A DNA stretch of 64,000 nt from contig CAVZHK010000001.1 of NCBI GenBank assembly GCA_963775055.1, forward strand, positions 461,402 through 525,401. The letters are read 5' to 3'. The notes beneath the pieces were generated by a model. That model saw only the letters and a program-made list of their open reading frames with translations. It did not search any database and was not told the origin of the DNA. The number at the start of each line of letters is the position of its first letter. Position 1 is the stretch's first letter. A program made the position numbers and the translations under genes. Positions 1,746 through 52,890 of this stretch are shown one piece after another. Source of the stretch: an uncultured Acidimicrobiaceae bacterium (GTDB taxonomy: Bacteria > Actinomycetota > Acidimicrobiia > Acidimicrobiales > CAIXPF01).

Positions 1746-1755
1746 CAGCAGATCT

Positions 1756-1797: not shown

Positions 1798-1798
1798 G

Positions 1799-2158
1799 TC
1801 ATGCTGGAACCGCGAGCGTTAACATACCATCAAGTACGTCGCCGACGATGCGGCCGCCGATGGTGGGCGCTGGCGACTCGGCGTCGAGCACACCCTTCAG
1901 TACGGGGCCGGCATCGAGCGCCATCTCCACCACCGTGAAAGGGGTCTTCGGCTCCGGGCGATGGTGACGATGCACCGTGGCGACACCTCGTACCACGCCC
2001 ACCAACTCGACCTCGATGGCGGCCAAGGTGGCAGGCAACGCACCACAGACGTCACAACCGTAAGGCTCCGGGGGCACCGCGACCCGGCCGCACCCACAGC
2101 GCGTACCCGCCACGGTTCGTCCCGAGCCCACTTCCCCGCCGCCCTCAACGCCGGCCAT
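1799..2158 (-). CDS. DUF35-type OB-fold/zinc-ribbon protein (thiolase-associated)
   Basis: The 119-aa ORF has a CxC...CxxC zinc-ribbon (RCGCGRVAVPPEPYGCDVCG). It is followed by an OB-like segment. It lies immediately upstream of the SCP-x thiolase, which is the usual pairing. Confidence 0.7.
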   Translation of the reverse strand: MAGVEGGGEVGSGRTVAGTRCGCGRVAVPPEPYGCDVCGALPATLAAIEVELVGVVRGVATVHRHHRPEPKTPFTVVEMALDAGPVLKGVLDAESPAPTIGGRIVGDVLDGMLTLAVPA

Positions 2159-3588: not shown

Positions 3589-3603
3589 CGCCGCAGCGTA
3601 GTG

Positions 3604-4179: not shown

Positions 4180-4290
4180 CGCCTCCGCGCTACCGGATCA
4201 GTTGCACGATCGGCCAGCCCGGCCCGGCGCAAGATAGGAAGGCTAGAAGCCTACGAGCCCTAGCGTTTCTGCCAGCGGAGCGGTAGGCTG

Positions 4291-4884: not shown

Positions 4885-4897
4885 ACCGTCCGCCTCG

Positions 4898-5563: not shown

Positions 5564-5641
5564 GGTCCACCACCACGGGAATCCGTTGGTGACAACGGGG
5601 ACGTTGCCGCGCTGCAGCGTCGCCCACCTACCCTGGTCGTC

Positions 5642-6430: not shown

Positions 6431-6448
6431 CCACACCGATCGGTATGG

Positions 6449-7285: not shown

Positions 7286-7310
7286 GGCAATCCTCTCGTT
7301 GTGCTGGTTC

Positions 7311-35927: not shown

Positions 35928-36002
35928 GCGCCTCTAGCTCAACGGCAGAGCAACGGACTCTTAATCCGCAGGTTCTCGGTTCGAATCCGAGGGGGCGCAC
36001 CA
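35928..36002 (+). tRNA. tRNA-Lys (anticodon CTT), encoded CCA; integration target
   Basis: It folds as GCGCCTC-TA-GCTC-AACGGCA-GAGC-A-ACGGA-CTCTTAA-TCCGC-AGGTT-CTCGG-TTCGAAT-CCGAG-GGGGCGC-A-CCA. Confidence 0.9.
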
Positions 36003-36022
36003 CAAACATGCAGGTCAGAGTC
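35955..36022 (+). repeat. att repeat copy 1 (3' 48 nt of tRNA-Lys plus 20 nt downstream)
   Basis: The 68 bp ggactcttaatccgcaggttctcggttcgaatccgagggggcgcaccacaaacatgcaggtcagagtc are identical to 50456-50523. Confidence 0.9.
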
Positions 36023-36109
36023 ACTTGATCCGCTCTCGCCGACCGGGGTCTCGGCGGCAATCTCACACGAATCTCACAAGGCTCTCAGATCGTGGCGTAC
36101 TGTGATGCC

Positions 36110-37204
36110 ATGAGAGGCAGCATTCGAGCCAAGAAGCCCGGGAGCTGGGAGCTTTCGTTCGACGCCGGCCGCGACCCCTTGACTGGGCGACGTCGGCAGC
36201 GGTCCTCCATGTTCCATGGCACTAAGCGCGACGCCGAGCGGGAGCTGCGACGGGTCGTGCGAGATGCCGAAGAGGGCCGTCTCGTCGGCGGCAGCGTGCT
36301 CGATGTCAGACCTGCTCGCCGGATGGCTCGATCTGTGCGCCGACAGCCTCTCACCCACCACCCTGCGCGAGTACCGGCGGCTGGTCGACAAACGCATCGT
36401 GCCTGCGATCGGGGCAGTGGCGGTCACCAAACTGACCACCCACGCCCTCGACGACTACTACCTGGCACTTTCCCGGGATGCCGGACTGTCCGCGGCGTCG
36501 GTCCGTCAGATCCATTCGATCATCCGCCGGGCGCCTCCGCCAAGCAGTGCGCTGGGGCTGGATCGAACACAACGTCGCGGTGAGCGCCACCAAACCACGG
36601 ATGGCCCGATCCACCATCAAGCCTCCCTCCATGGGTCGCGTCCACGAGCTGCTCACCGAATCCGACCGCTACCACCCCTCCTTCGGAGTCCTGGTCCGCG
36701 TAGCCATCGCAACCGGCATGCGACGCGGTGAACTCTGCGGCCTCCGGTGGTGCGACGTCGAGCTCTCACGACGACAACTCCACGTCACCCAAGCCGTCGT
36801 CGCCGTGCCCGACGGCACCGCCATCAAAGCACCCAAGTCCGGCGCGACACGGCGCCTCTCAATCGACCACCAGACCGCAACCATCCTCGAAGACCACCTG
36901 GTGGCGATCCAGCGACAGCGCTGGGCCGCCGGAAACGCCACTCTGAACGGCGACGGGTATGTGTTCAGCCACGCTCTCGACGGCTCACGACCGCTCCACC
37001 CCGACAACGTGACCGCAGCGTTCCGACGGCTACCTTCCAACAACGGCACCGTGCGGCTGCACGACCTACGGCACGCCCACGCCACGCAACTGCTCTCAAA
37101 TGGCGTCGACATCAGCGCCGTCCAGCAGCCGCCTCGGCCACGCGAACTCCTCGACCACACTCAACATCTACGCCCACGCCCTCGAGGAAACCGACGAGCG
37201 CTAG
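36110..37204 (+). pseudogene. tyrosine recombinase/integrase A, three 1-nt frame breaks (about 36300, about 36530, about 37127)
   Basis: The arm-binding N-terminus is MRGSIRAKKPGSWELSFDAGRDPLTGRRRQ. A second frame gives LSPTTLREYRRLVDKRIVPAIG. A third frame gives ATGMRRGELCGLRW and LHDLRHAHAT. A final frame gives RLGHANSSTTLNIYAHALEETDER, with the catalytic Tyr and a stop at 37204. Confidence 0.8.
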
Positions 37205-37624
37205 CCTCAGTCATCGGAGCGTTGCTAGGGCCAACCTGAACCGGCGACTGTCGGGTTATGAGCGATGGCGGGCGGTGGCGGACCTTGCTGGCCTGCACGA
37301 ACCACGGTTGTTCACCGTTCGCCGGCCCCCCTTCGCCGTGTGAGCCTACGGGGCGGTAGATGACCGATTGATGTCAGGCGTCGCTGAGGATCGCTCCCGA
37401 GCTTGGGTGATCGTCGTTCCCGGGTGGCTAGCGCCGTCGTTTCCGAGCGGGCCAACCGGGCCACTCCGCCGGCACCCGAGCGCGGCCGACCGGCCTTGCC
37501 GGGTGGTGATATCGAGCGGTCGTGCTGGACGACCGAGTGGGGCGGAGGGGGTGCGAACTCAAGCGCAACTAGCACCGGATCGAGACCACTTGCTAGAGAC
37601 TAGCGGGCTCGATTTCTCGCGTAT

Positions 37625-37953
37625 CTACGCAGTCGGTGGCTGGTAGCTCGGGCGGAGGCTACTGCCCTCATCGACTTCTTCCGCAGTAAACAGGAGTTCC
37701 GCAGTTGATGAAGGCACTGTCCCCGCCGACAACGATGTCGTCAGCACCGCTGCAACGGAGGCTGAAGTTGGCAGTTCGACGATCCCGACAGCCGAGAGAT
37801 TGTCGCTTGACCAGTAGGGACCAGCGACGACCCTGCCTCCGACACTCTCGAACAGGCCCTGGAGGACTTCTCGACGGCTGGAGATGCGCCGGCCGCCACA
37901 AGCGCCCGGACTGCTTCAGCGGTATAGGTTCCTCGTATCAGATAGTGTGCCAT
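37625..37953 (-). pseudogene. GYD domain protein, frame break near 37888
   Basis: The first frame gives MAHYLIRGTYTAEAVRALVAAG. My own translation of the next frame gives ISSRREVLQGLFESVGGRVVAGPYWSSDNLSAVGIVELPTSASVAAVLTTSLSAGTVPSSTAELLFTAEEVDEG, with a stop at 37625. Confidence 0.65.
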
Positions 37954-38141
37954 CGCATCCTCGTCTTCAGGGTTCTCGAAGGGCTTCGTGTCGCCTGCAA
38001 CCTAGCTCCGGACGATCGGGCTCGCATCGTACGGCTCTACCTGAGTCCCGGCCCGGCCGGCGCCTCGCCCCCGGGGCGGTAGTGGTCGTTGCCGGATGGA
38101 CCGACCGGGCCCTCCGCCGCCTGTGTCAACGGGCCATTGAT

Positions 38142-38345
38142 GGGAGGATGTCCCGAGTCTCGTGGAACTTCGGGGTGGCCCGGGTGTGATGTTATGCGGT
38201 CTTGGCGAGTGGTTGGTGGATTCTGGTTTGTAGGTTGAGGGGGGCGGCGAGCTGCGCGAGTTGGCGGTGGCCTTTGACCCGGTTGTATTGCTCTTCGGCG
38301 CACAGGATCCCGGCGGCAGCCCAGCGCAGTCGCATGTCCCCGGGG
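38142..38345 (-). mobile_element. IS256-family remnant (one terminal inverted repeat plus the last ~50 codons of the transposase)
   Basis: The stretch gggaggatgtcccgagtctcgtggaacttcggggtgg...gcgcatgtccccgg aligns by eye with 51356-51555 of the full IS copy. Homology stops at the palindrome ggggactgcccc/ggggcagtccc (38342-38365). Confidence 0.8.
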
Positions 38346-38632
38346 ACTGCCCCGGGGGCAGTCCCGAACCTCTACACCGCCCTCCACCACCTCCACACCA
38401 CCGGACCCTGGCCCCTACCCACCTGAACAGTTACTCGACGGCTGCGTGCTGTACTCCCGTGGGGCGATCTGGTCGGTGACGCCGGCAACGGGTGGCCTGG
38501 GCACGCCGATCGACAATGCTCCGCCTTATCGTGCGAGCCAGGGCCTGGCTACTGTCGTCCTGGATGGGCCAGTGCCCTGGTGGGGTTTGGGCTAGCCTGC
38601 GGACCGTTCGGTCGCATAGGGAGGGGTTCCAG

Positions 38633-39782
38633 GTGGAGACATGGAACGGGTTGAGTGCTGCCGAGGCGATCGCTGTGGAGGCCGACGCCCGTTGGGATGA
38701 GCTGGAGGCAGGCTGTCGGTTTCCTGACGATCTGTATCGGGGGCTGGCTGGGGCAGGGGTGTTCACCCAACTTGTTCCCGCCGAGTCTGGCGGCGCAGGA
38801 CGCAGCCCGTGCGACACTTTTGATCTGGGGATGGAATTGGCGCGGTACAACGGCAGCTTGGGCTGGATCGCCAGCCAGGGCGCGGCGATGATGGCCCTCT
38901 TTTACTCGCTGGCGTCGCCTGGGCTACGCGACGCGGTGCTGGGCGATCCCTTGGTCCGTCTTGCGGGTGTCAACACCGCGGTTGGACGGTTCCGCACGGC
39001 AGGTGATGGTGTCGAGATCAGCGGACGGTGGCCGTTCACCTCCGGCTGCGAGGGCTCGTCGTGGTGCGTGGTGTTGTTGTTGCCGGACGGGTCCAATGAT
39101 CGCGGCGAGCTGCGTATGGCTTGTGTGCGGGCCGACCAATACCGGGTCGATCGCGATTGGGATCCGGATGGCTTGCGCGGCACCGGCAGTCATTCCATTG
39201 TCGTCACCGGGGAGTACTGCCCTTCGGATTACCTCTTCGACATCAACCTTCGATCAACTCTCGAGCATCCGGTGGCGTGCGCAAGTCCCGCGGTGGGCGG
39301 GCCGTGGCCGATCTCGGCGTCCGTTGCTGCCACCCAACTCGGCCTGGCCCGACGAGCCCTCGACGAGGCCACAGTGATCGTGGACAGCAAAGCGCCGGCG
39401 CCAACGTTCACGCCCCTGAGATCGAGCCACGCCGTACAACGCGAACTCAGCCGGCTCGAGGGCCTATGGTGGGCGGCGCAGGCCGGAATGCGAGAAGCAC
39501 TGACTGAACTATGGGAGGCAGCCATTTCCGACGGTGTCTCGCTGCAGCACCGGCGCAAGGTGCCATCTGCAACCACACGGCCAACGCGGCCGCAGGGCGG
39601 ATTGTAGAGGACAGCGTGGCTTCTCGCCGGGACCAGCGCTTTGTCGCATTCTCACCCGCTGGCCCGCTGCTTGCGGGATAGCCGGCCGTTGCTCGGCCAC
39701 ATCTCTGCGAATGAACGGGTCCTTGAGTACGCCGACCAGGTCCGCCAGAGCGGCGCCCAGTTGCCGTTCGCCCTGATCTGAC
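38633..39782 (+). pseudogene. acyl-CoA dehydrogenase-fold (flavin-dependent oxidoreductase/monooxygenase-like) protein, at least 2 frame breaks (about 39555, about 39628)
   Basis: The GTG at 38633 is preceded by gggagggg. The ORF has ISGRWPFTSGCEGSSW and LRGTGSHSIVV. The C-terminus can be recovered only by frame hopping, as AICNHTANAAAGRIVEDSV then GTSALSHSHPLARCLRDSRPLLGHISANE, with a stop at 39782. Confidence 0.6.
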
Positions 39783-39983
39783 CAAGGGCAGGCGCCGATC
39801 GACGTCGTGCGGAAGGCCGCGTCGTCACCGAGCGGGCCGACCGGACCAGTCCTCCGGACTGTTGGGGGGCGGATCGAATCCCTGAGCCTGCTATCGAGCT
39901 GGGCGCAAGTCGCGCCGGTCGAGAGACGGGAGGGCACGGTCTTTATGCCTCGCAGCGGTTGCGGTGCTGGAGTGGGCTTGGCT

Positions 39984-40793
39984 TCAGGCCGTTCCTCTAG
40001 CAACGAGAACAACGTCTGGGAAGGTGTAGCTGCCGCTGCCGTTCCTGTACGGGGCCGCACGCTCTCGAACCCCGTTCTCGATTCGGTCCTGGATCTCTTG
40101 GGGCTGCTCGTGGAGCCCGGTGATGATCCATCCCGAGTTGAGGAGGACGTCGAGGTCCTTGATGGTGACGGGCTTCTCCTTGACCTGGCAGTCGACCTCG
40201 CTATAGCCACAGCCCTGCAGCAACTCGACGTATACGAAGGGCTCGGCCACATCGAGAAGCGCACCACCAGGTACGGTCTCGGGCGGAAGCACAGCGGAAA
40301 CCGCCTCGGCGAACGATCCCCAGGACGGCTGTCGAGACTGGATCGGGTGAACGATGACCAACCGCCCACCCGGCACCAGGACTCTTCGGATCTCACCGAA
40401 TGCTTGCTCGGGCCGAGCCATGTGATGCGCACAGTAGTTGACGACAGCAAGGTCGAACCGGTCGGCGCTGAACGGCAAATCCTCGGCGTTGGCAACCCGG
40501 AAGTCCAGTTTCGGGTGGTGCCGTTGGGCTTCGGCGATCATCTGAGCCGAGAAGTCCACTCCTGTTACCTCGGCTGCGTACTCGCTGAGCTGAGCCGACA
40601 ATACCCCGGGCCCGCACCCGACATCGAGCACTCGTTCCCGCGGATCGATACCTACGGCCTCTCGGATGAGGTCGAGCTGGCCGCTGTTCGCGGTGAGATT
40701 CGCCACATGCTCGACATAGAGGGGGGCGGCTCCTTCCCACGCACCATGCTCATAGAACTCAACCTTGTCCGGTTCGTACGACGCCATCACCAA
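39984..40793 (-). CDS. class I SAM-dependent methyltransferase
   Basis: The 269-aa ORF is intact. It has motif I VLDVGCGPGVL and the post-I and motif II regions (DLAVVNYCAHHM, LVPGGRLVI). Confidence 0.8.
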   Translation of the reverse strand: MVMASYEPDKVEFYEHGAWEGAAPLYVEHVANLTANSGQLDLIREAVGIDPRERVLDVGCGPGVLSAQLSEYAAEVTGVDFSAQMIAEAQRHHPKLDFRVANAEDLPFSADRFDLAVVNYCAHHMARPEQAFGEIRRVLVPGGRLVIVHPIQSRQPSWGSFAEAVSAVLPPETVPGGALLDVAEPFVYVELLQGCGYSEVDCQVKEKPVTIKDLDVLLNSGWIITGLHEQPQEIQDRIENGVRERAAPYRNGSGSYTFPDVVLVARGTA

Positions 40794-41179
40794 CCTCCCT
40801 CACCAAATCCGACTGCGCAGCAATCGGCCCCGCCGGGCAGTACACCACACGTTCGACGGCTCCGCATGAGAACAGGGTCGATGTTTCGTCGCGTTGACCG
40901 GTACTGGATCTCACCGGGGCGGCAGCACTCTCGGCCACCGAGGGTAACGAGCAAGCGGACGTCGAGCTGGCGAGCCATCAGAGTGCGGCGCTCCGGTCGG
41001 CATCGCGTAGGGATCGAGCCCTGGGCGCTCTGCTGGACCGCTCGGATCCTTCGCAGTGCGCCGGCAGGGTCCTTGCCTGACTCGGCCACGCCGGCCGAAG
41101 GTTACGTAGCCGCCCGATAACGACGTCGTGCCGACCGCCCTTGGCCACGGCACTCCGGCACTTAGGGTCCGCCGATGAA

Positions 41180-41690
41180 TTACGTGGTTGTAGTTTGTTT
41201 GCGGCGAGGCTTCAGTGGAGTTCCAGCGATGGTGTAGTTCCATTCGCCGTGGAAGGCGTGTCCGGTGAGCGGGACGGCTTGGAGTTCGGCGTCGGTGACC
41301 TTGACACCTTTGGGGTAGCTGCCGGTGTCGCGTTCGGCTCGGACCTTGAGCCGGTACGGGTGGTGGTGGCGGCGATGAGGTCGACAACGACTTCGTGGCT
41401 GGTGAGGGGACGGCCTCGCCAGTTTATTGTGATGTGGGAGAAGAGGCGGTGCTCGATCCGGTTCCATTTCGACGTTCCGGGAGGGAAGTGACAGACCGTG
41501 ATGATGAGACCGGTCCGAGCGGCGAGCTCGCCGAGCTCGGCGTTTCCAGAGGCGACCGCGGTAGCTGTTGGATCCTCCTGCATCGCCGGTGATCAGCAGC
41601 CGTTTCGCGTTCGGGTACAACACCTGGCCGGCGCTGTGCCACCACCTGGCGATGCTCGACGCCGCGAACGCCGCGGTGTCCCCGTCGCTC
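41180..41690 (-). pseudogene. ISAzo13-family (Rhodopirellula-type DDE) transposase, C-terminal fragment with frame break
   Basis: The fragment has DTAAFAASSIARWW, LLITGDAGGSNSYRGRLWK, PPGTSKWNRIEHRLFSHITINWRGRPLTSHEVVVDLIAATTT and GEWNYTI. These are spread over two frames, and the N-terminal half is absent. Confidence 0.7.
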
Positions 41691-42208
41691 ACATGTTTCT
41701 CGAAGCGCTCGGTCAACAAGCAATCGAATCAGGCATGAAAGTCGCCTGGTTCACGCTCGAAAACCTCGGCGGCTTGGTCCGCCGCCACCGAGCCGATGAC
41801 ACCGTCACCCGAGCCGTGACCCGCATCCTGCACTCCGAACTCGTCGTGATAGATGACATCGGGCTTCTCCCCGTCAGCCCCGACGCCGCCGAAGGCCTCT
41901 ACCGCCTCGTCGACGCCGCCTACGAGAAACGCTCCATCGCCGTGTCATCCAACCTGCACCCCTCAGGATTCGACGGAAATCATGCCCAAAACCTCGCCGG
42001 CGCCACCGTCGACCGACTACTCCACCACGCCCACCTCTGCCTCACCACCGGCGACAGCGTCCGCCTCCAACAAGCAACCACCGGAATTGGAGTCAAGCCC
42101 CTGGCCTAAACACCGCGCAGCCCTGGTGGCCACCACCGCGCAACTCTGGTGGCCACCACCGCGAGGTTCCCATGACCGCCACCGCGCAGAAACCCGTGGC
42201 CATTGACA
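41691..42208 (+). mobile_element. IS21-family fragment: 3' part of the istB helper ATPase plus the repeat-rich IS end
   Basis: The IstB-like sequence is FLEALGQQAIESGMKVAWFTLENL ... VVIDDIGLLPVSPDAAEGLYRLVDAAYEKRSIAVSSN ... ATVDRLLHHAHL, with a stop at 42109. It is followed by ctggtggccaccaccgcg x2 and a related third copy, ending ...cattgaca at 42208. Confidence 0.7.
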
Positions 42209-42488
42209 GTCGGCTCGCGTCCACCTCGAAGAGCGTGTGCTCGAAGCATTCTCTGGTGGTGCCATCGAATCCGGACGTGTCGACGCACACGTCGCAAACG
42301 TCGAGCCAGAACCGGTCATGTCGGGAGTAGCTGAAGTTGCCCAGGTACCCTCCACTGACACCGATCCAGTTGTGCACGAGCCTGCCGATCTCTCGACGGG
42401 TGAGCTTCACCGAGTCCATCGCCGACCCGATACTGCTTCCGCACTCAGCGGATCGATCCAGCACATGACCTCTATCGTGCCAGCCCAT
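42209..42488 (-). pseudogene. hypothetical protein gene truncated at its 3' end by the IS21 fragment
   Basis: Translation from the ATG at 42488 reads MGWHDRGHVLDRSAECGSSIGSAMDSVKLTRREIGRLVHNWIGVSGGYLGNFSYSRHDRFWLDVCDVCVDTSGFDGTTRECFEHTLFEVDASRL. The reading frame then runs into IS21 end sequence. Confidence 0.3.
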
Positions 42489-43449
42489 CGAGGCACTCCG
42501 ACCGACTGACCTCGAGCACGTGTCGGCCGCGCGATCGGCTGCCGTGCCACCACCGCCCGTAGCGTTCGGCACTCACCCGAAGCCTCCGGCCCAGCATCTA
42601 TTGCCCCTGCGGAAATCCCTCAGACACAGCTGGAGATCCTGCGGATCTCCGACCGGGAGATGGCGACAGCGCTGCGGCGCGGCATTGTTCGAGTGGTCGT
42701 GCTTGTCAACGTGACCGCCGCCTGCAACCACGTCGCGCCGCAAGCGCGTCCACGTCGATGGTGGACGATGCGATAGCGAGCCCGGGGCAATCGGACATTC
42801 CGTCGCCGGCCCGATCGGCGCCACCTCCCGGCAGCGTCCCGGCATCTCCTACTCGCCATGGGAGGTGGGATCCGTTGTCACGTCATAGCTCTCGGCAGGG
42901 TCCCTACGTACGGCATGGACAACAACACCGCCAGGCGAACAGTCACAGTAGAGGAGGCCACGGATGCTCGGTTGCTCACGGCCACGGCCATGCCCCAGCC
43001 TCCGCCGGCAGTTGGCACGCTGCCGCGACGAGCGGTGCATCAGCGCCGAGCGTGATTGGGTCAACACCTTCGCCGTGCACCACGAAGCGATCGATTCGGC
43101 CGCAACTTCAGCGCTTCAACCTGGCCGACGGGTCGTTGAGACGCCAACGGGCCGGTCACGACAGGAGCAAATCTGTTACTCCATTCCGAACGAAACGGCC
43201 CGAACACCTCAACGCGATCGTCAACACGATCCTCAACGACACCAGCGAACTGATCTGAACGACGCGGTTTCAGCCTCAACGATGCGCTCTGCTGGCCAAC
43301 GGCGACCTCAACGCGCTCTCGGCGGTCTCGATGGGCCGGCCGTCCAGACGCACCACGTTCATTGACTCCGCCACCCGGGCCCCTGTGTCGCGTCCGGTCC
43401 GTCGCGTGCGCTTATCCCCATCGACCGACTCAAACCTGGAGGAATCCCC

Positions 43450-43653
43450 TTGTCTGCCAAGCTCACCTACACCGTTACCGAGGCCGCCCAGCTGCTCGGC
43501 ATCTCCCGCACAAGCGCCTACGACTGCGTGCGGCGAGGCGAGATCCCCGCCCTTGTCCTCGGCCGGCGCATCGTGATCACCCGCAACGCCCTTGAACACC
43601 TGCTCGGCCCACTCCCCATGGCCGCCACGCACGTCGACCGCGACCACTCGTGA
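43450..43653 (+). CDS. xis: excisionase-family helix-turn-helix DNA-binding protein
   Basis: The TTG start is preceded by ggagga. The 67-aa product has the MerR-type Xis signature YTVTEAAQLLGISRTSAYDCVRRGEIPALVLGRRIVITRNALEHLL. Confidence 0.7.
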   Translation: MSAKLTYTVTEAAQLLGISRTSAYDCVRRGEIPALVLGRRIVITRNALEHLLGPLPMAATHVDRDHS

Positions 43654-43819
43654 CGAATCCCAACACACCCCCAGCTCGCTCCCGTGCGACCGCAACGACA
43701 ACGCGGCCAACACGTCTGAAATGAGGCTCACAGACTTGCCGGTTCCCCAAGGGGAACCGGCTGAAGGCACAACACCACCACCAAGCCACCGCCACGCCGC
43801 AGCTACCTCACCCAACGCC

Positions 43820-44362
43820 ATGCGCACCATCGAAGCCTCCAACACGAGCGCCGACCCCATCCGCTACCGGCAGCGCTGGCTCGCCGACCTTTTCCTCGCC
43901 CGCGACGAAGCCGCCGAACAATGGGCGCAGGCTGGCGCAGTCCAAGAAGCGTCGCTCCAGGCAGCCATCGACGCCATGCAACGCAGGGAAACCCGCCGCA
44001 CGTGTCGCCCGTCAACACGAACAAGCGATACAACGCTTGCGTACCGCCGAAGATGCCGAACAACGACGGCTGCGACGCAACGCCCGCCAACGCGCCAGCT
44101 ACGCCCACAGACGCAACCGAGGACACGCCGATCCCGAGGGCCGTACCGGGCTCCGCACAGATTGCGATCGTCGTCGACCCCGGTGCCTACGCCACCGTCA
44201 AAGCCGAGGCCTACAGAGCGGCGCACATCAATCCCCGTCGTTCTCGGCGAGATCCTCACCACCACCAAGCTCCCTGACCGTGCCAGCTCCAGAAGTCCGG
44301 TCCCCGATGGCAGCGCACAGGACAAGGACGACACGCCAACCAACACGCCCGGATCGCCATAG
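43820..44362 (+). pseudogene. hypothetical element protein (coiled-coil, then a ribbon-helix-helix-like segment), readable only across at least 2 frame changes
   Basis: Segments lie in three frames. They are DPIRYRQRWLADLFLARDEAAEQW, then LRTAEDAEQRRLRRNARQRASYAHRR, then IAIVVDPGAYATVKAEAYRAA followed by IPVVLGEILTTT. Confidence 0.3.
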
Positions 44363-44669
44363 ATAGCGACATCTGGCATCAACTTCACCTCGACGCCATC
44401 AACTCCAACTACACCACTGGCCACTGGGTCGGCCTCCATATCGAACACTGGGCACAACCCAATGAGTCCCGCCCTTTGGGGCCAGCAAGCCGCTGCTGAC
44501 CACAGCCTCGGCGAGGGCCCGTGTGTGTGTGTGTCGGCTTCGCATCTCACGGAAAATCTCACGCACTCGTTGCGACACGCTAACAATGGGCACGACGGGA
44601 CGAACTCGCTGCGGACAGAACGCCTGCTCAGGGCGTCGCGAGGCGTCTCAACGGACGGCTGTCAAGGCC

Positions 44670-44713
44670 CTCTTAATCCGCAGGTTCTCGGTTCGAATCC
44701 GAGGGGGCGCACC
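44670..44713 (+). repeat. att repeat copy 2 (44-bp core of the tRNA-Lys 3' end)
   Basis: The sequence ctcttaatccgcaggttctcggttcgaatccgagggggcgcacc is identical to 35958-36001. The next 20 nt (gcaaacgggcaggtcagggc) are a diverged version of the tail seen in copies 1 and 3. The upstream 30 nt retain a weak D-arm-like ctcaacgg. Confidence 0.9.
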
Positions 44714-44828
44714 GCAAACGGGCAGGTCAGGGCGGTAGTGGACGCCCGGAGCGGCCGATCACCCGGCAGAAAGTTTGGCGCCAGCGGCGCGTTAGACCGA
44801 CTGATAGACACCCCGATAGACTGCGCCG

Positions 44829-46280
44829 GTGGGGCAGGCCGCGGACCCGTTTGAGTCCAAGATCGACCGCTCGGGGTGCCACCACCTCTGGACGGGTAGC
44901 AAGTCCGCCCGCGGTGCCGGACAGGTACGAATTGGCGGCAAGCTGCACACGGCGGCCCGGATCGCTTGGGAACGGGTCCACGGGGCCGCGCCGGAAGGCG
45001 CCAAGGTCCTGTCCTGCCCCACCGAACCGGCCTGCGTTCGCGTCGAGCATCTCCACCTGAAACAGGCGAAAGCGAAAGACATCGGGCGCCGCTCAACCCG
45101 CGGCAGCGGCTCAATGAGCCAACTCGGACCGGACACCTGGAAACTCACCGTCGACGCTGGCCGCGACGGTCACGGTCGAAGGCAGCGGGTCTACCGCACC
45201 GCGAGAGGCACCCGAGCAGACGCAAGCCGAGCACTCGCCGCCCTGGTCACAGAAATAGGGGAAAGCCCTGCCGTGCCAACGTCCGCTTCGAGAAACTTGA
45301 CCGTCAACGAACTGGCTGAGTGGTACCTCGCGTTCGCCCGAGACGAACGCGGGCTCGAGCATTCCACCTTGGTCGGCTATCGCGAGGTCTACGACAACTG
45401 GCTGCGACATCACATCGGGCACATGAAAGCGGCCGGGCTCGACGGCGCCGCTCTCGACAACGCGTTCGGCCGCATGCGCCGAGGCGGGATGTCCGACAGC
45501 CGCATGAACAACGCCCGGGCGTTGATCTCCGGGGCCTACAAGTGGGGCCAACGCCACCACAAAGTCCCCGTCAACCCCGTCGATCGCTTCGAGTTGCCCT
45601 CCAGCTCCAGCGCCCCCAGGCCCACCGCCACCCCTGAGCTGGACGAGCTGCTCCGGCTACTCAACGGGGCCGAGGACCACGATCCCGAACTCGCCCCGGT
45701 GCTCAAGCTCGGCGCCACCACCGGCATGCGCCGAGGCGAACTCTCAGGTTTGCGCCGAGACCGCCTGCGCCTCGACCGAGGCGAACTGGTGGTGGACACC
45801 GCCATCAACGACGCCGGCGGGATCGTCGTCGAGAAACCCACCAAGACCAAACACAATCGCACCGTCAGCCTCGACCCCGTCACGATCGGCCTGTTGCGCC
45901 AGCACCTCGCGGGCATGGACCAGCGCGCCGCCACCTGCGGCGCCGCTGTGCCCGAGAACGGTTTCGTGTTCAGCCTCGACCCCACCTGCCGGACGCCGAT
46001 GCGACCCGAACTGATGACCAGACGCATGCGACAGCTCCGCGAGGCCCTGGGCATCCGCCTCGGCGAGTTCGACGCCACCATCCTCGCGTTGCGCAAGTGG
46101 ACCAGCACCGAGCTGATGGACGCCGGCTTCAACCCCTCAACGGTCAGCGGCCGCCAAGGCCACAGCGTGCAAGTCATGCTGGCCCACTACTCCACCCACC
46201 GCCGCTCCGCCGACCAAGCCGCCGCCCAACACCTCGGCCACAAAGTCCACGGCCCCCAGGAAGACACTCACAGCACATGA
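44829..46280 (+). CDS. tyrosine recombinase/integrase B with an in-frame N-terminal HNH-like Cys/His extension
   Basis: The 483-aa ORF is uninterrupted. Residues 1-95 read FESKIDRSGCHHLWTGSKSARGAGQVRIGGKLHTAARIAWERVHG...CPTEPACVRVEHLHL. The canonical integrase part starts at MSQLGPDTWKLTVDAGRDGHGRRQR (ATG at 45114). The catalytic region has ATTGMRRGEL, LRKWTSTE, GHSVQVMLAHYS. Confidence 0.8.
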   Translation: MGQAADPFESKIDRSGCHHLWTGSKSARGAGQVRIGGKLHTAARIAWERVHGAAPEGAKVLSCPTEPACVRVEHLHLKQAKAKDIGRRSTRGSGSMSQLGPDTWKLTVDAGRDGHGRRQRVYRTARGTRADASRALAALVTEIGESPAVPTSASRNLTVNELAEWYLAFARDERGLEHSTLVGYREVYDNWLRHHIGHMKAAGLDGAALDNAFGRMRRGGMSDSRMNNARALISGAYKWGQRHHKVPVNPVDRFELPSSSSAPRPTATPELDELLRLLNGAEDHDPELAPVLKLGATTGMRRGELSGLRRDRLRLDRGELVVDTAINDAGGIVVEKPTKTKHNRTVSLDPVTIGLLRQHLAGMDQRAATCGAAVPENGFVFSLDPTCRTPMRPELMTRRMRQLREALGIRLGEFDATILALRKWTSTELMDAGFNPSTVSGRQGHSVQVMLAHYSTHRRSADQAAAQHLGHKVHGPQEDTHST

Positions 46281-46538
46281 TCCATGGTGCGGCGCCAGCC
46301 CCATCCAAGCCGCACCCACTCCGGGCACCGATTCCATCCGGGCAGGGGAGTTGCCGCGGCCACGAGACCATCACGCACGGTTGCACAGACCATCACCCGT
46401 CGCTACGGACGACAACGCTCCCTGCTGCGGTGACCACCCGTCACCCCGAACAAGTGGCGCCGACCCCATAGCCGGGCTCGAGAGATGCGCTTACAAGCCG
46501 GCGTGGCTCGGCCAGGATCAGCGAGCCAGCACCAGTGA

Positions 46539-46591
46539 CCAATCCCGTGATTGGATGGGTCATTGCCATGTGATTCATAGTGGTATATGGT
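46539..46591 (+). promoter_or_regulatory. putative operator palindrome plus promoter for a leaderless RES-Xre operon
   Basis: The palindrome CCAATCccgtGATTGG lies at 46539-46554. TTGCCA lies at 46563-46568, then 17 nt, then TATGGT at 46586-46591. This ends 6 nt before the ATG at 46598. Confidence 0.35.
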
Positions 46592-46597
46592 TGTGCT

Positions 46598-46987
46598 ATG
46601 GTGACGGTGAGCAGGCCCGAGCTGCGGGCACATGATCATGCGATGCGAGTCCCTTTCGCAACAGCAGCGAAAGAGCTGCGAGATCTGCTGACACCTCGGC
46701 TTGTCGCCTACCTCAGCGGGGTTCGCGAGACACGAGCCGTTCACCAGTGGGCCGACGGGACCCGAGAAGCGAAATCCGGCGAGGTCGAGGACCGCATTCG
46801 CTTCGCGTTGCAGGTCGCGCTGCTGCTCAGCGAGCACGACGCACCACGTGTCGTCCAAGCCTGGTTCCAAGGACTGAACCCACACCTCGGGGACCGCTCA
46901 CCCGCAAGACTCCTTCGCGAAGGTGATCTCGACGAATTCGGTCCCATGGTGCTCGCCGCGGCGAGAGCCTTCCTCGTCGGCGGGTGA
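46598..46987 (+). CDS. Xre/ParS/MbcA-type antitoxin (DUF2384-like)
   Basis: The ORF has LVAYLSGVRETRAVHQWADG and WFQGLNPHLGDRSPARLLREGDLDEFGPMVLAAARAF. It overlaps the RES gene by 4 nt. An alternative GTG start lies at 46580. Confidence 0.7.
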   Translation: MVTVSRPELRAHDHAMRVPFATAAKELRDLLTPRLVAYLSGVRETRAVHQWADGTREAKSGEVEDRIRFALQVALLLSEHDAPRVVQAWFQGLNPHLGDRSPARLLREGDLDEFGPMVLAAARAFLVGG

Positions 46988-47655
46988 GACAGGCCGCCGC
47001 ACCGACGGTGCTCTACCGGCTCGGGCGACGCCCCGACCCGTGGGCATGGCCGGACTGGGCCTACGCCGAGGCCGACGGCACGTTCGGCAACCGCTACGAC
47101 GACCCCCAGGGGATCTACCGGGTTCTCTACGCCTCAACGCAACGAACTGGAACCTTCGTGGAGTGTCTCGCCTACTACCGTGCCGACATCCACGTCATCG
47201 CGGAACTCGCAGCCATCATGGGCGACGAGGGCGACAACGAACCTCCTGCCCCCGGCGTCGTGCCTAACGAATGGGTAGACCAACGCTGCGTCGGGCGGGC
47301 CGTACTTTCCGGGGACTACGCCGATGTCGGCCACCACCAATCACTCGCCGAGCTACGCGCCGCCCTCGCCGCCCAAGCAGTCCACCACGGCCTGCACGAT
47401 CTCGACGCCGCCACCATCCGACTGACCGCCCCCCGAGCCCTGACCCAAGCCATATCCCGCTACGTGTTCAGCCAAACCATCAACGGCCACCGACGTTGGA
47501 ACGGGCTCACCTACCTCTCAAAGCACGGCGACAACCTCCGCAACTGGGCCATCTTCGAGCCCGCAGATCCCGACATCATCGACATCACCAATTTCACAAA
47601 CCAAGACCCCGGCCTCAACGCCGCTCTCACACTCCACAACCTACAACTCGGGTAA
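46984..47655 (+). CDS. RES domain toxin
   Basis: The 223-aa ORF has GNRYDDPQGIYRVLYASTQRTGTFVECLAY (R...Y...S/E layout) and NGLTYLSKHGDNLRNWAIFE. Confidence 0.7.
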   Translation: MRQAAAPTVLYRLGRRPDPWAWPDWAYAEADGTFGNRYDDPQGIYRVLYASTQRTGTFVECLAYYRADIHVIAELAAIMGDEGDNEPPAPGVVPNEWVDQRCVGRAVLSGDYADVGHHQSLAELRAALAAQAVHHGLHDLDAATIRLTAPRALTQAISRYVFSQTINGHRRWNGLTYLSKHGDNLRNWAIFEPADPDIIDITNFTNQDPGLNAALTLHNLQLG

Positions 47656-47824
47656 CGACCCAATCCTCCATTCACGCGTGACTATTCCGACCGGTCCTCG
47701 CCGGTGGGGCGTGCATCTGCTTCCCCCGCGGGTGTCAGTCCTCAGGGACGCAAGCTTCTTCCTGTGGCGCTGGCACGATCATGGTCGTGACGATGCTTAT
47801 CCAGGAGGATCCAAAACAGGCCAT

Positions 47825-49604
47825 ATGACATATGCTGAAATAGAGCAAGCGATCGCCGGGCTGTCTACTCTTCACGAGATCAACAACGTCTGGCCAGCAG
47901 ATGCCGATGATCGTCCCACCGACGTGCTGTACGCGCTGGATTCTATAGCGTTAGGACTGTCATTCTCCAAATTCCTCCCGATCAGCGTACGACCGGCGTC
48001 CGGTGGTCCGCCTTGGGTCCACGTAGACGGGAACCCCTCAGAAGTCGCCCTGAGACTGTCCTCCGCCCTGGACCACCTCTCGACGCCGATTCTGCGCAGC
48101 CGGATCGGGCTTTTCCTCTGGTGGAACCTGCCCGACCGGAGCGTCGGGATACTCAATCAGACGCTCGAAGCGTCAGTAGTCGTGGCGCGCACGTCTCCGG
48201 ACCCGACGGATAGGTTGTCAACGATCTGGGCGGCATCTGAGCTGGCCCGATCGACGAGGCGCCATGGCGATCTCGACGCCTTGCGTGCCTGCACCGCCGA
48301 CGCCGCCTTTATGCTGGCCTTCGCCGACCATGATGCGGCCGAACTCCTAGGGCTGCGGATGGACGGCGGCCTCATGTTCCTCTATGGCATCGCTGCCGCG
48401 TGGGATCCGCTTCCAATCCGCCGCGAGTTGAACGCGGTTTGCGAGATCGCGGCAGCGCCGAATCCATCCGTTCACCTTGCCCTCCCCTCACCTACCGTCC
48501 ATTGATTGGATTCACAGGATTCGATATCTACTCGCCAGCGGATCCGACGACGAGCGTGTACGGGTGGTGGAGGAAGTCGTTGCCGATCGCCAACTTGCGG
48601 CCAGGCGGTCTCCTTTCCCTCGCGGAGCGGCACCGCCGCTGATGGAGGCCGCAGAGTTGTCTCGCTCCATCGAAGACGCCGCCTTCGAAGTTCAGCAGTT
48701 GCCGAACAAGTCCCCTTTGCGGTCCCGAATGCAACAGCTCACAGAAGATCTCGTAGTCGAACTCCAAGACCTCAGCTGGCGGCACAACCACCCGCGGCGA
48801 TCCCTCGTGTCCTCAGAAGATCTGAGCGAGGATGCGCAAGCGGCCCGCGACGAATGGCGCTGCGAGTTGGCGGACGTTCCGCCGTCTGTCGAGCATCGCT
48901 TGGTTTGGCTGGGAAGCCGGGGTTCGATCCTCGGCGCTCCTGCGGGACTTGAGGTCGCAGCGCAAGAGCACCGCCGTAGCATCGGTCAGTTCCGCTCGAC
49001 TGTCCGGGCGTACGGTTTCATGGCACCGGACACCCTCCGAAGGCAAGACTTGGACGCACTTGCGTTCGCCGAGATGGCTCGACATCGATTTGTGGCCTGG
49101 GGAGAGGTCGCCGCCGAGGCGTTGCAGACCGCCAATTTGGATGTCGAATTGACACTTCTCTTTCAAGGTGCGTTGGTCGCCGAAGCTGTCGCCGAGCGAT
49201 TTGCCCATGCACTGAGGTTGTTCGTCGCCGGCGACGCCGACGCTGCCGCCCACATCGTGATACCAAGGATCGAAGCGACTATTCGACAGGTCGCGATCGC
49301 CCGGAAGATACCGGCGTTGGAAGTCGCCTACCGCTCATTGGGAAACATCTCGTTTCTCGACCGGCTGCTTCGTCGGATCAGCGACGGCGCTCCCCTGAGC
49401 GACCGTCCAGTGTGGAATCAGTTCCGACTCCTGTTGACCGACGATCAATGCGTAGGCATTCGAAACGTCTCAAGTCACGGGCTCCGGCGAGATATTGGGA
49501 TGATAGAATCAACGTCGATCGAGGAGGCGGCCCTTCTGCTTCATGTCGCAGCCTTTCTCTCAACCTTGGACAAGGCCGGTAATTGCAAAGAAATGTCGCA
49601 TTAG
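47825..49604 (+). pseudogene. large hypothetical protein (about 590 aa if ORFs 47678..48505 and 48477..49604 are joined), tentatively DUF4209-like at the C-terminus
   Basis: The two long ORFs overlap by 29 nt in adjacent frames. The DNA is visibly AT-richer than its surroundings. The C-terminal motif LLLTDDQCVGIRNVSSHGL is reminiscent of DUF4209, from memory only. The ATG at 47825 is the first Met after the GC drop. Confidence 0.5.
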
Positions 49605-50332
49605 TCGACAATAATGATTGCAACGAAACCGCTCACCATCGACCCACCTGGTCAAGATCTTTAGATCAATGATGTCAGCATCCTGCGTCCGGTGAAGTGG
49701 AGCGATCTGCGCCGATGTCCTCCGACCATCCGCGGGCGCCTGATCGGCATGCCCTTTGAGAGTGACCATCGGTGCTGGGGACCTGGGCCGGGCAGGCGAC
49801 GACGCAACCCGCCCGTTGATCTCTACCGAGCGCACCTCGTCGGGCGGGCACTGGTCATCTTCGGCCACGCCATCACCAAGATGGAGTTCGGCACCGAACT
49901 TTGTCGGCTGGGGCGCAGTCCGCCGGACCAGACTCGCCGCAGTGCGCGGCACCGCCAAGATCTCCTGGCCCGACCCCGAAACTGCTGGTGCATCGCGAGG
50001 CGGAAGGCCGCGTGCTGCACGGGACGGCACGCGCTCGCTCAAGCGGCCCACACGGCAGAGGCCTGGATCGCCGGGACGACCGTCCGGCGAACATGCGGTT
50101 GGTCTCCAACGACGCCGTGTCCCAACGAGGCACCGAATTCGAACTCGTCACCGACCTTCCTCCACCGAGCGCATAGATCGAATGGATCCACCGGCAACGG
50201 CCACCGAGCGCGAGCCCCAGGGAAAGACCGAACCGGTCGCTATATCCGCTGGCCGTGTCGCCCTCGCGTGCCGTACTGCGGACAGCGCAAGCACGTTCCC
50301 CAACCGTCGACCTGCGGATTACGGCCGGGGTC

Positions 50333-50581
50333 TTGGCGCCTAACTTGGCGCCAAACTCCACGGACTGGGGCCCACCAAACCGCGCTAGGCGGACGACCGT
50401 CTGTACAGAAGCCCACGTGAGAGCACTAGATCCCACCCACTGGACAGTCCTTTCGGGACTCTTAATCCGCAGGTTCTCGGTTCGAATCCGAGGGGGCGCA
50501 CCACAAACATGCAGGTCAGAGTCGGTGCGACCCTCTGCTGTAAGCCATCGTGGTTGCTTTGGCGCCTAACTTGGCGCCAAA
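50333..50581. repeat. 23-bp direct repeat ttggcgcctaacttggcgccaaa (50333-50355 and 50559-50581) bracketing att copy 3
   Basis: The two copies are identical when read from the sequence. Each contains the perfect palindrome TTGGCGCCAA. Confidence 0.85.
50456..50523 (+). repeat. att repeat copy 3 (68 bp identical to copy 1)
   Basis: See copy 1. There is no 5' half of a tRNA upstream. Confidence 0.9.
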
Positions 50582-50770
50582 GTCGGCCGACCTCGTGGTC
50601 GGGGTGGGAAACGAGGCCGGAGCGGTGATCGAGTCCAAGTGTTCATACCCCTGCTAAGCGCAGCGGGCCGGCCGAATTCGACACCTTGTCCCGAGATTTC
50701 CCTGCGAGCAGCGAGCCGCTCGGGGGTGACCACCCCAGCTGTGGCCGTCACACTCTGGCGGCCACAGGCG

Positions 50771-51102
50771 TCAGGAGGTTTGGTCTGGGTGAGCGTCCTC
50801 ATATCCCACGCTAAGCGCGTCCGGCAGGCGAGATTCGACAACCAGTTCCTCGAGGCCGCCGTTGCGGTCTGACGTGAACACGATCCGAGAGCCGTTGAGC
50901 GACCACTCCGGGTTCCGTCGAGAACGTCGTTGGCGGTGAGCCGCCGCGGCGCGCCCCCATGCAGGTCCCGCACGAAGATCTCAGGTTCGCCATCCCGATC
51001 CGGTGCAAAGACGAACGAGCCCACCGAGGGACTGGACCGACCACAAGCCACCGACATGGCGACCAGAGCCGCCACCAATGACGGCGAGCGCAGCGCGGCC
51101 AT
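50771..51102 (-). pseudogene. small lipoprotein with TolB-like PD40 beta-propeller repeats, frame break near 50910
   Basis: The N-terminus MAALRSPSLVAALVAMSVACG carries a lipobox. It is followed by FVFAPDRDGEPEIFVRDLHGGAPRRLT. The next frame gives PEWSLNGSRIVFTSDRNGGLEELVV, with a stop at 50771. Confidence 0.5.
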
Positions 51103-51356
51103 ACGCGCAGAACCGTGAACCCGGTCCCGGGGGTGTGAGCGGCTCGACGCGTCGTTCAACAGGGCCGCTACCACCTTTGGGTACGGCCCGCCGCCGCCGC
51201 CACCGTGTAAGCGCCCAGCGGTCCCATAAGCGCACGTCGCACGCCAACCCGACGGGGAGGTGTCATGGGCCCGTGCAAGCGGCTCAGTGCGTAGCGGCAG
51301 GGGATTTGGGTGTGCTGATGCCGGCGACGAAGTAGCAGGCCGCCGTGATCAGCACG

Positions 51357-52890
51357 GGAGGATGTCCCGAGTCTCGTGGAACTTCGGGGTGGTCCGGGTG
51401 TGATGTTATGCGGTCTTGGCGAGTGGTTGGTGGATATTGCTGTGTAGGGCGAGGGTGGCGGCGAGCTGTGCGAGTTGCCGGTGTCCTTTGACCCTGCGGT
51501 ATTGCTCTTCGGCGCAGAGGATCCCGGCGGCCGCCCACCGCAGGCGCATGTCCCCGGCCCGGCGGTGCGGGTTCGCTCCGGTGGGCGGGGTCCAGTTCCT
51601 CACGTTGTGAGCGTGGGCTTTGACGATCTCGATGGTTGATTCGACCGGGTTCGTGGTGGCCAGGGTCCGGGCGAGGGTGCCGTTGATCCCGAGCTTGTTG
51701 ATGGTCACGGTCTCCGCGAGGCCTTCGCGTAGTGATGCTGCGGCGTCAGGCCAACGCAGCTCCAACTGGGCCGCGAGCGCTTCAAGAGCGGCGGTGGCTT
51801 CGCGCCAGTCCGGGTTCGCCCACGCCGCCCGCAGCTTGCGCCGAACAAAGGACTTCTCGACCTTGGGGAGGTAGTCAAGAACGTTCCGTTCCTTATGAGC
51901 CCTGCACCTGGCGATGACGTAGGGCTGCCCGTCGAACACCCGGCGTATGGCGGCATGTAAGCCTTTGCCGCCGTCCAGCACGAACAACACCCCCTCGGAG
52001 ACATCGAGCCCGCGTTCCACCGCCCCGGGGAGCAGGTCCGAGCAGACGGTGCCGTTCTCGGTGGTGCCTTGCACCAGACCGAGGCAGTGCTTGTTGCCTT
52101 CGGCGTCCACGCCGAGGGCAGTGATCATGGCTTGGTCGCCTAGGTCGAAGCCGTCGATGTAGATCACCAACCACCGGCTCCCGGACAGGTCCCGATCACG
52201 GAGCTCAGCCAGCCGGGCGGCGGTGGCGGTCACGAACCGGCGTGACACCGCTGATTTCGAGGTTGATCCGGCGGCGATGTCGCCAATGGGTTCCAGGGCA
52301 GCGGTGGCGTAGTTCCGGGTCGACACCCCTGCCAGCATGGCGGTCACTGCTCGTTCGGAGAGCAGATCGACCTGCTGGAAGCAGTCCCACGTTTCCAGGC
52401 GGACCTCGCCGCCTTCAACAGCACGGACCCGGGGCCGGCGGAGGGGGACGCGCCGCCCACCAACAGGGACCGACCCGTCCTCCTGACCGTGACGAGACGC
52501 GCGTTCGGGATGGTTGGTGGCGTCCTTTCGGGCCGACGATCTGATCGACTTCCGCCGCCATCAGCTCTTGCATGACGCCCAAGCCGATCTGCACCGACGC
52601 TGCGAGCAGTCCTTGGCGGACCGTTGCTTGGAACGTTTCGAGCTGGCCGGCGGCGATCTCCGCCAACCGGCCGGAAAGTTCGGGGTGGGACAGGTCAACC
52701 ATCCCGATCCCTGGCATCAGCCGCAAGCCGGCTCTCACCCCTACCGGACACCGGCTTGGACGTGGTTGACTTCGACATGTTGGTCCTCCTTCTCGACATC
52801 GAGTGTTTGAGACCCCTCGAGCCTGCCACCGGCAGGACCCGAGGAGGAGGACCACCCCTCTCAGAATCCACGACTACCGGGACAACCTCC
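51357..52890 (-). mobile_element. IS256-family insertion sequence (about 1.53 kb) with imperfect roughly 40-bp terminal inverted repeats
   Basis: The ends are ggaggatgtcccgagtctcgtggaacttcggggtggtcc and ggaccacccctctcagaatccacgactaccgggacaacctcc. Flanking AGCACG(G) is duplicated on both sides. Confidence 0.85.
51406..52717 (-). pseudogene. IS256-family (mutator-type) transposase, 1-nt frame break near 52496
   Basis: The N-terminal ORF ends with ...GPKGRHQPSRTRV. The adjacent frame continues RHGQEDGSVPVGGRRVPLRRPRVR...AMLAGVSTRNY...YIDGF...VIARCRAHKERNVL. The junction gtc[t]cgtcac carries one extra base. Confidence 0.8.

Follow-up and report, generated by a model that had tools for sequence, protein, structure and literature searches.

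Two putative conflict modules, a divergent RES-Xre pair and a split HEPN-family gene, on a tRNA-Lys islet of an uncultured Acidimicrobiaceae bacterium

A small mobile element that carries a toxin-antitoxin pair and one long gene raises the question of whether its cargo is a single system or two systems that happen to be neighbours. This question was posed by element B, which spans approximately 44735-50455 of a stretch of 64,000 nucleotides (nt) from an uncultured Acidimicrobiaceae bacterium (GenBank assembly GCA_963775055.1, contig CAVZHK010000001.1, positions 461,402 to 525,401 of the forward strand); the whole stretch is called the window here, and its coordinates are used throughout. An earlier reading of the letters (the original prediction) had placed an Xre-type antitoxin, a RES toxin and a large gene of unknown kind on the element, as candidate defence or addiction cargo. 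The evidence presented below was best explained by a transfer RNA (tRNA)-Lys islet with two independent conflict modules, a RES-Xre pair and a HEPN-family protein, a reading to which a probability of about 0.7 is attached.

An islet at tRNA-Lys

A tRNA-Lys(CTT) gene was located by ARAGORN at 35928-36002, and the 68 nt of its 3' end (35955-36022) recurred at two further places on the forward strand, which delimit element B: an attL-like copy at 44667-44734 (88% identity) on the left, and an attR copy at 50456-50523 (100% identity) on the right. Since there are three copies of the tRNA-Lys 3' end, two elements (A and B) stand in tandem at this tRNA. Element B, a mobile islet of about 5.8 kb, has an intact tyrosine integrase of 483 amino acids (aa) on the forward strand (44829-46280; Pfam Phage_integrase, E = 2.5e-10), and hence both of the marks of a tRNA-targeting islet, that is, an integrase and flanking direct repeats of a tRNA 3' end.

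Beyond the integrase, the Xre-RES pair and the large gene, no further recognizable gene was identified within the element, in agreement with the original prediction, the gene coordinates of which all held on re-examination. Its remark that the large gene is visibly less GC-rich than the rest of the window was also upheld. The G+C content of the window is approximately 65-70%, and the two lowest 400-nt bins in the entire 64 kb, 47601-48000 (0.578) and 49201-49600 (0.575), both coincide with the large coding region. The large gene has a G+C content of 0.60-0.62, against 0.65 for the RES-Xre pair; this difference in composition suggests that the two have separate origins.

A divergent RES-Xre pair

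The cargo begins on the forward strand with an Xre/MbcA-like antitoxin gene of 129 codons (46598-46987, ATG start) and a gene for a divergent RES-domain toxin of 223 aa (46984-47655, GTG start), which overlap by 4 nt (GTGA). The toxin had been recognized from its sequence, and this guess was borne out by its homologues and its predicted fold, although the protein itself had no direct match in Pfam, NCBIfam or PADLOC, even at E <= 10. There were 1232 homologues, several of them named as RES domain-containing proteins by their sources, and 22 of 27 aligned homologues (51-89% identical) matched the Pfam RES family (PF08808; best E = 1.3e-12). Three residues, R37 (47092-47094), E60 (47161-47163) and S179 (47518-47520), were invariant in 27 sequences and are present in the window protein. 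Its AlphaFold (AF2) model had a predicted local distance difference test score (pLDDT) of 90.4, and the only significant matches of this model in the PDB were toxins of the RES/ADP-ribosyltransferase type, with Foldseek probabilities of 0.98-1.00 to VPA0770, NatT and P. putida Res; the match to ParT was weak (E about 1, probability 0.14). The entries of this type that were matched are 8gug, 8qnq, 6gw6, 9r35 and 6d0i. Template modelling scores (TM-scores) to the solved toxins were only 0.4-0.6, due to a helical insertion between E60 and S179. The same insertion accounts for the length of the protein, where the chains of P. putida Res, ParT and VPA0770 have approximately 145-160 aa.

The antitoxin had been described as an Xre/DUF2384-type protein. 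Its position, the 4-nt overlap and the best match in the PDB agreed with this, while its match to the Pfam family Xre_MbcA_ParS_C was below threshold (E = 0.004; 17.5 bits, with the cut-off at 24.5). When a six-sequence antitoxin profile was searched against the PDB sequences, MbcA ranked first (6fkg_C, E = 0.037), with a colinear alignment over residues 46-124. By these comparisons the pair is classified as a putative type II RES-Xre (MbcTA-like) module. As in MbcTA of M. tuberculosis (Rv1989c/Rv1990c) and other RES-Xre pairs, the antitoxin gene is upstream of the toxin gene and overlaps it. Likewise, the R/E/S triad and the ADP-ribosyltransferase-like fold are held in common with the RES toxins of P. 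putida, P. aeruginosa NatRT, Vibrio VPA0769/0770 and Sphingobium ParST, whereas the window toxin differs from characterized RES toxins in falling below the Pfam RES cut-off. RES-Xre systems are already well characterized, and what is new here is modest, namely a divergent RES subfamily that Pfam misses. For annotation, an unnamed 223-aa protein can be read as a RES toxin overlooked by standard profiles.

Ratios of nonsynonymous to synonymous substitution (dN/dS) were calculated against a metagenome contig that is 92% identical (L005), and were 0.10 for the antitoxin and 0.29 for the toxin; therefore, both genes have been maintained by selection. Across five loci (L005, L007, L012, L015 and L016) the amino-acid identity was 87-96% for the antitoxin and 68-91% for the toxin. 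Thus, the antitoxin was more conserved than its own toxin by identity as well as by dN/dS, which sets the pair apart from known RES-Xre pairs. The usual pattern among toxin-antitoxin pairs is the reverse.

RES toxins act in one of two ways, by depletion of nicotinamide adenine dinucleotide (NAD+) or by ADP-ribosylation of a protein. NAD+ phosphorylase activity is known for MbcT and NADase activity for the Res proteins of P. putida and Photorhabdus, while ParT modifies the enzyme Prs by ADP-ribosylation. By analogy, the window toxin would be expected to target NAD+. It may be a NADase, an NAD+ phosphorylase or a protein ADP-ribosyltransferase.

One large gene, split by a single base

The RES gene is followed by a spacer of 169 nt and then, from ATG 47825, by the long coding region, which had been described as two open reading frames (ORFs) overlapping by 29 nt in adjacent frames. 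This was confirmed for ORF1 (47825-48505, 226 aa as called) and ORF2 (TTG 48477-49604, 320-375 aa), both on the forward strand. Whether these are one gene or two, which had been left as a question, was answered by L005, a contig found via the toxin and 91.8% identical to 46473-50519 of the window, where a single, intact ORF of 592 aa follows the RES gene. DNA alignment with L005 showed that the window has one extra G at 48451/48452 (forward strand; GCGGCAG here, GCGCAG in the intact relative); deletion of one G restores the 592-aa ORF, and the rejoined gene contained no further stop codons or indels. ORF1, which is the DUF7380 region, was 90% identical to residues 1-223 of the L005 protein, while the residues conserved among relatives (QRRxHPF..PS.DWIHRIRYL) are encoded in the frame of ORF2 from 48452 onward. 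The C-terminal part in that frame (48452-49604) comprises the helical middle of the protein and the DUF4209/HEPN region. Full-length relatives were single ORFs of 545-603 aa. ORF1 and ORF2 are one gene of 592 codons, so that two hypothetical proteins become one disrupted HEPN-family gene.

For the large gene as a whole, dN/dS against L005 came to 0.26; taken separately, its N-terminal and C-terminal parts gave 0.23 and 0.27, respectively. These values are low on both sides of the break; therefore, the break is either recent or an error of assembly. The gene has been either inactivated recently or mis-assembled, and it is probably inactive in this genome.

That the frameshift is an error of sequencing or assembly, the organism having an intact 592-aa gene, is a serious possibility, if one that falls short of even odds. 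A single base (GG against G) sets the window apart from a relative with 92% identity, dN/dS is equally low on either side of it, and the gene is otherwise free of stops and indels. Against this, the site is not a long homopolymer, and the public annotation of the source contig (783 kb) also has the halves as separate proteins of 226 aa and 320 aa. Furthermore, inactivated copies exist elsewhere: in L010 (150-2170) an Aeromicrobium-type homologue is broken, after approximately codon 170, by an IS21-type element that encodes IstA and IstB (Pfam E = 1.9e-76 for IstB), which is a second, independent inactivation within the family. An independent Logan contig (L002) ends before 48451 and so provides no check of the site. 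Another explanation is that the split is itself functional, either through programmed ribosomal frameshifting or because DUF7380 and HEPN polypeptides are translated separately and act together. This is extremely improbable. It would agree with the 29-nt overlap, and with two short proteins in the library, P0125 (314 aa) and P0123 (402 aa), that begin at the equivalent of ORF2 Met56, but these may be fragments from contig ends, and full-length relatives are unbroken. Programmed frameshifting was rejected because no slippery sequence was present at 48451 (GAG ATC GCG GCA), and because a shift at the stop codon of ORF1 would skip conserved sequence that is read in the ORF2 frame.

The family of the large gene

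The original prediction had recognized no catalytic motif in the large gene, except that the C-terminal GIRNVSSHG was tentatively likened to DUF4209-type proteins. That string itself contains the HEPN Rx4-6H motif, RNVSSH (49461-49478, forward strand), and the gene belongs to a recognized family of predicted HEPN ribonucleases (RNases). The assignment to DUF4209 was firm at the level of the family, while the window protein itself scored 15.5-19.3 bits against Pfam DUF4209, below the cut-off of 22.3 (E = 0.0012-0.008). Profile searches with Pfam and PADLOC placed the rejoined gene in the DUF7380-DUF4209 (PDC-S39) family through its relatives. The window ORF2 matched PDC-S39 with E = 3e-5, over part of the model only; neither ORF1 nor the rejoined protein matched DUF7380, and the intact L005 protein had no PADLOC or Pfam match at the thresholds used.

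An exhaustive phmmer search identified 163 relatives, mostly of 560-600 aa, with E down to 1.7e-15 for typical members. A few were close and full-length (586-603 aa, 40-53% identity), while the others shared mainly the last 140 residues or so. Of 30 aligned members, 29 matched DUF7380, 25 matched DUF4209 and 29 matched PADLOC PDC-S39 (best E = 2.3e-32). Elements invariant in this alignment included an N-terminal R..D.LW, a PRxExxxR helix and L-R-N-x-x-x-H-G-L. In the RNxxxH motif, R and H were invariant and N was at least 90% conserved in family alignments of 30, 43 and 46 sequences, and the E and R of the upstream PRxExxxR helix were invariant in those of 30 and 46. By the numbering of the L005 protein, the R and H of RNxxxH are R546 and H551. 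When the window clade was compared by hhalign with 43 typical members, the match had a probability of 100% (E = 3e-41, 537 columns) and was colinear between clade residues 4-591 and family residues 10-566. Therefore, ORF1 corresponds to the DUF7380 end, and ORF2 to the DUF4209 end, of one architecture. On these alignments the large gene is classified as a divergent member of the family that combines DUF7380, helical repeats and DUF4209 (PDC-S39); both DUF4209 and PDC-S39 are already catalogued, and the new part is again modest, a divergent branch of PDC-S39.

Other searches recovered few relatives. A word-indexed protein search returned only the query itself for ORF2, and only two proteins for the 30-sequence profile. 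With a four-sequence alignment, a single locus was recovered from the genome collection, another from the metagenome collection and none from viral contigs; searches of plasmids and phages yielded one unannotated match on a Streptomyces plasmid, a weak match in Agrobacterium and no match in phages. Full-length but distant DUF7380-DUF4209 relatives (21-29% identity) were present on 11 (pro)viral IMG/VR contigs (L017-L027). Structural comparisons were less productive: a sequence-profile search of the PDB with the family matched designed helical repeats only, Foldseek returned no significant match to the model from either the PDB or BFVD, with no solved HEPN structure matched, and isolated C-terminal domains scanned at E <= 10 matched DUF4209 and no other family of the HEPN clan.

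DUF4209 is the C6orf70-type HEPN domain and is predicted to be a catalytically active RNase; its bacterial members occur in operons related to restriction-modification systems (Anantharaman et al. 2013, PMC3710099). The Rx4-6H motif is held in common by the window protein and the C6orf70/ERMARD type, the eukaryotic members of which differ in having a predicted single transmembrane region and endomembrane localization. This HEPN assignment rests on the profile comparisons of that study. PDC-S39 is one of 145 untested candidates, which were nominated because they lie inside restriction-modification, BREX or DISARM systems (Payne et al. 2024, preprint); the supplements of the preprint are without an entry for PDC-S39 or DUF4209. 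The window protein resembles PDC-S39 in its length (approximately 560-600 aa), the N-terminal R..D.LW and the C-terminal PRxExxxR and RNxxxH. It differs in that the window clade is a divergent branch whose members fall below thresholds individually, in that the window copy is frameshifted, and in its context, since the gene lies on a tRNA-Lys islet beside a toxin-antitoxin pair and neither in nor next to restriction-modification, BREX or DISARM genes. A partial parallel is HEC-08, a single-gene HEPN system (DUF3644) in which phage defence is abolished by mutation of the Rx4-6H histidine (Payne et al. 2024, preprint). HEC-08 is likewise a single protein with one HEPN domain and accessory domains, and a mechanism like that of HEC-08 is proposed for the window protein, but HEC-08 belongs to a different HEPN family, with an N-terminal HEPN domain and zinc-ribbon accessory domains, and it has no sequence relationship to the window protein.

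Two modules or one system?

The Xre-RES pair and the large gene were found together only in the window and in three other loci (L003, L004 and L005), all of which belong to one element lineage of approximately 92% identity and therefore count as a single observation. Relatives of the RES-Xre pair with 68-78% toxin identity occurred without the large gene in four unrelated contexts (L007, L012, L014 and L016), where the neighbours were type I restriction-modification genes with a TrwC relaxase, a helicase, a HEAT-repeat protein and a glycosidase. Apart from this lineage, the closest relatives of the large gene were those of L009 and L010, which come from an Aeromicrobium metagenome bin; an HTH_17 gene and an unassigned ORF lie downstream of them, and in L010 no RES or Xre gene of the window subfamily was found within approximately 2 kb upstream. 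Similarly, local hmmsearch identified no RES or Xre of the window subfamily within up to 8 kb of the relatives on the Streptomyces plasmid and the 11 IMG/VR contigs (L001 and L017-L027). The recurrent association that the original prediction had envisaged was thus confined to a single element lineage and was seen at none of the 13 large-gene loci with usable flanks. Since each is found elsewhere without the other, the RES-Xre pair and the large gene are read as independent modules rather than as a three-gene system. The proposal of defence or addiction cargo therefore stands insofar as these are genes of conflict systems, the large gene being a member of PDC-S39, but not insofar as it implied a functional tie between them.

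The opposing view, that all three genes form one cooperative defence or addiction system with the HEPN protein as sensor or second effector, would suit their arrangement: they are adjacent and on the same strand in the window, L003 and L005, they are the only cargo of the islet, and all three are under purifying selection. This is very unlikely, given that every linked case derives from one lineage, that the pair is found beside unrelated genes and the large gene on L001, L010 and the 11 viral contigs with no window-subfamily RES or Xre nearby, and that a 169-nt spacer and a difference in G+C content separate the two. It is somewhat less unlikely, though still improbable, that the large protein is neither an RNase nor a defence factor, and that its HEPN-like domain is non-catalytic and has a regulatory or nucleotide-binding role. 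Some HEPN families are indeed non-catalytic (PMC3710099), comparison with solved structures yielded no HEPN RNase as a match, and no test of PDC-S39 is reported in the literature searched. However, the R and H of Rx4H and the E and R of PRxExxxR are invariant across the 30- and 46-sequence alignments; DUF4209/C6orf70 is predicted to be active and has restriction-modification-related neighbours; the gene is carried by mobile islets and (pro)viral contigs; and its repeated inactivation is typical of costly conflict genes.

Several points weigh against two conflict modules as the explanation of element B. The RES protein and the antitoxin of the window fall below the curated Pfam cut-offs for RES and Xre_MbcA_ParS_C, as does the large protein for DUF7380 and DUF4209. 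The local RES and Xre profiles came from a narrow subfamily, so that distant RES genes could be missed, and only about five loci of the close large-gene clade were available, most of them too short to include the upstream context. The literature searched describes PDC candidates only as untested. Finally, with a frameshift here and an IS21 insertion in a relative, the large gene may be non-functional.

Promoter and regulation of the RES-Xre pair

A scan for consensus sequences identified the promoter-like TTGCCA-17-TATGGT (46563-46591, forward strand), in which the -10 hexamer ends 6 nt before ATG 46598; 0.5 such sites were expected by chance in the region. Upstream DNA was then compared among six lineages, the toxins of which are 68-91% identical. 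Farther upstream the sequences were unalignable, while three features were kept in both sequence and spacing: the direct repeats GT(C/G)ATTG-n3-TGTGAT(T/C), a TAnnnT hexamer, and an ATG exactly 6 nt later. The conserved hexamer, gap and ATG support a leaderless promoter, as had been predicted, and the RES-Xre transcript probably starts at or next to ATG 46598. Leaderless mRNAs are common in actinobacteria.

The original prediction had also pointed to a palindrome upstream of the antitoxin, CCAATC-n4-GATTGG. It is present at 46539-46554, but its conservation was confined to three close relatives (L003, L005 and L006) and did not extend to L007, L012, L015 or L016. The intergenic region of 320 nt contains 10 inverted repeats of comparable kind, this palindrome included, which is therefore no more than expected by chance; as an operator it was downgraded on both grounds. 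The direct repeats, which in the window read GT(C/G)ATTG-n3-TGTGATT (46559-46576, forward strand), overlap the -35 hexamer and the spacer, are conserved in the six lineages and are unique in the window (0.09 chance matches expected); therefore, these GTGATT repeats are the better candidate for the operator. Such an operator, composed of direct repeats and without a palindrome, would distinguish the pair from known RES-Xre pairs. The P. putida Xre-RES complex has been solved bound to its own promoter, according to the title of PDB entry 9r35, and by analogy the window pair is probably autoregulated. The comparison thus yields a concrete candidate operator and leaderless start for this RES-Xre subfamily; the conserved leaderless promoter with direct repeats is a further, modest novelty.

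A proposed mechanism

The active site of HEPN RNases is composite, and two domains are generally required to build it. The following sequence of events would be consistent with the observations. Element B would have been integrated at tRNA-Lys by its tyrosine recombinase, in tandem with the decayed element A. The RES-Xre pair would be expressed from a leaderless, self-repressed mRNA beginning at ATG 46598, with the toxin translationally coupled to the antitoxin, which would bind DNA and cap the toxin with its C-terminal domain. Once the antitoxin was lost, the toxin, with its ADP-ribosyltransferase-like fold, would consume NAD+ or ADP-ribosylate a target; the pair would in this way stabilize the islet and might also kill infected cells (abortive infection). 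The 592-aa protein, where intact, is predicted to comprise an N-terminal DUF7380, a tetratricopeptide-repeat-like helical solenoid and a C-terminal DUF4209-type HEPN domain with RNxxxH. The DUF7380 and solenoid part would probably restrain the single HEPN domain; a trigger, which is plausibly some component of a phage, would then allow two HEPN domains to pair and cleave RNA.

It is conceivable, albeit doubtful at present, that the DUF7380-solenoid-DUF4209 protein is a single-protein abortive-infection RNase, carried as the exchangeable cargo of tRNA-Lys mini-islets that is swapped, along with integrases, between tandem neighbours, and that its repeated inactivation reflects a cost to the host. 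If true, this would be the first functional example of the bacterial C6orf70/ERMARD-type HEPN family. For work on PDC-S39, a candidate defence family with kinship to the HEPN domain of eukaryotic ERMARD/C6orf70, an intact and close relative is at hand in L005. Current understanding is unchanged by these findings, both modules being in catalogued families and the large gene probably being inactive in this genome.

Neighbouring sequences and minor observations

A block between the large gene and attR (49805-50205) does not appear to be protein-coding and was 94-96% identical to L005, more than the flanking genes (approximately 92%). Mismatches in this block were without codon periodicity, there was no reading frame in common with L005, and RNA folding gave no signal of stability (z = 0.36 and 0.14). 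Among the possible explanations of the block are an attP arm and some other site that acts at the level of DNA. A scan of 44000-51000 with Rfam returned a sole match, to CRISPR-DR31 at 48410-48446, which was dismissed as chance, being sub-threshold (24.6 bits against a gathering score of 35, E = 0.065) and a single copy within coding sequence beside the frameshift.

Element A (36023-44666), the neighbour of element B at tRNA-Lys, is decayed. It contains a truncated integrase (36478-37239), an acyl-CoA dehydrogenase-like ORF (38492-39607), an IstB fragment (41498-42109) and an HTH_17 excisionase-like gene (43450-43653). Within it, a stretch of 202 nt (38142-38343) has a counterpart at 51356-51557 with 91% identity, and this counterpart overlaps a mutator-family transposase gene (51406-52347) at the gene's 3' end.

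The arrangement in L005 differs from that in the window. There, at 1-7902, the module of Xre, RES and large gene is 92% identical to that of the window, but the integrase that precedes it is a different one and is truncated. The element that follows in L005 has an integrase that is 84.6% (nt) and 84.5% (aa) identical to that of element B, and it carries other cargo, a nucleotidyltransferase/HEPN toxin-antitoxin pair. Judging from the alignment of these tandem islets with 44670-50519 of the window, cargo and integrases have been shuffled between them. Lastly, a 33-nt repeat beginning TTGGCGCCTAACTTGGCGCCAAA occurs at 50333-50365, within element B near attR, and at 50559-50591, just beyond the element; the copies are 88% identical and may represent an arm-type site for the integrase or the remnant of a further element.

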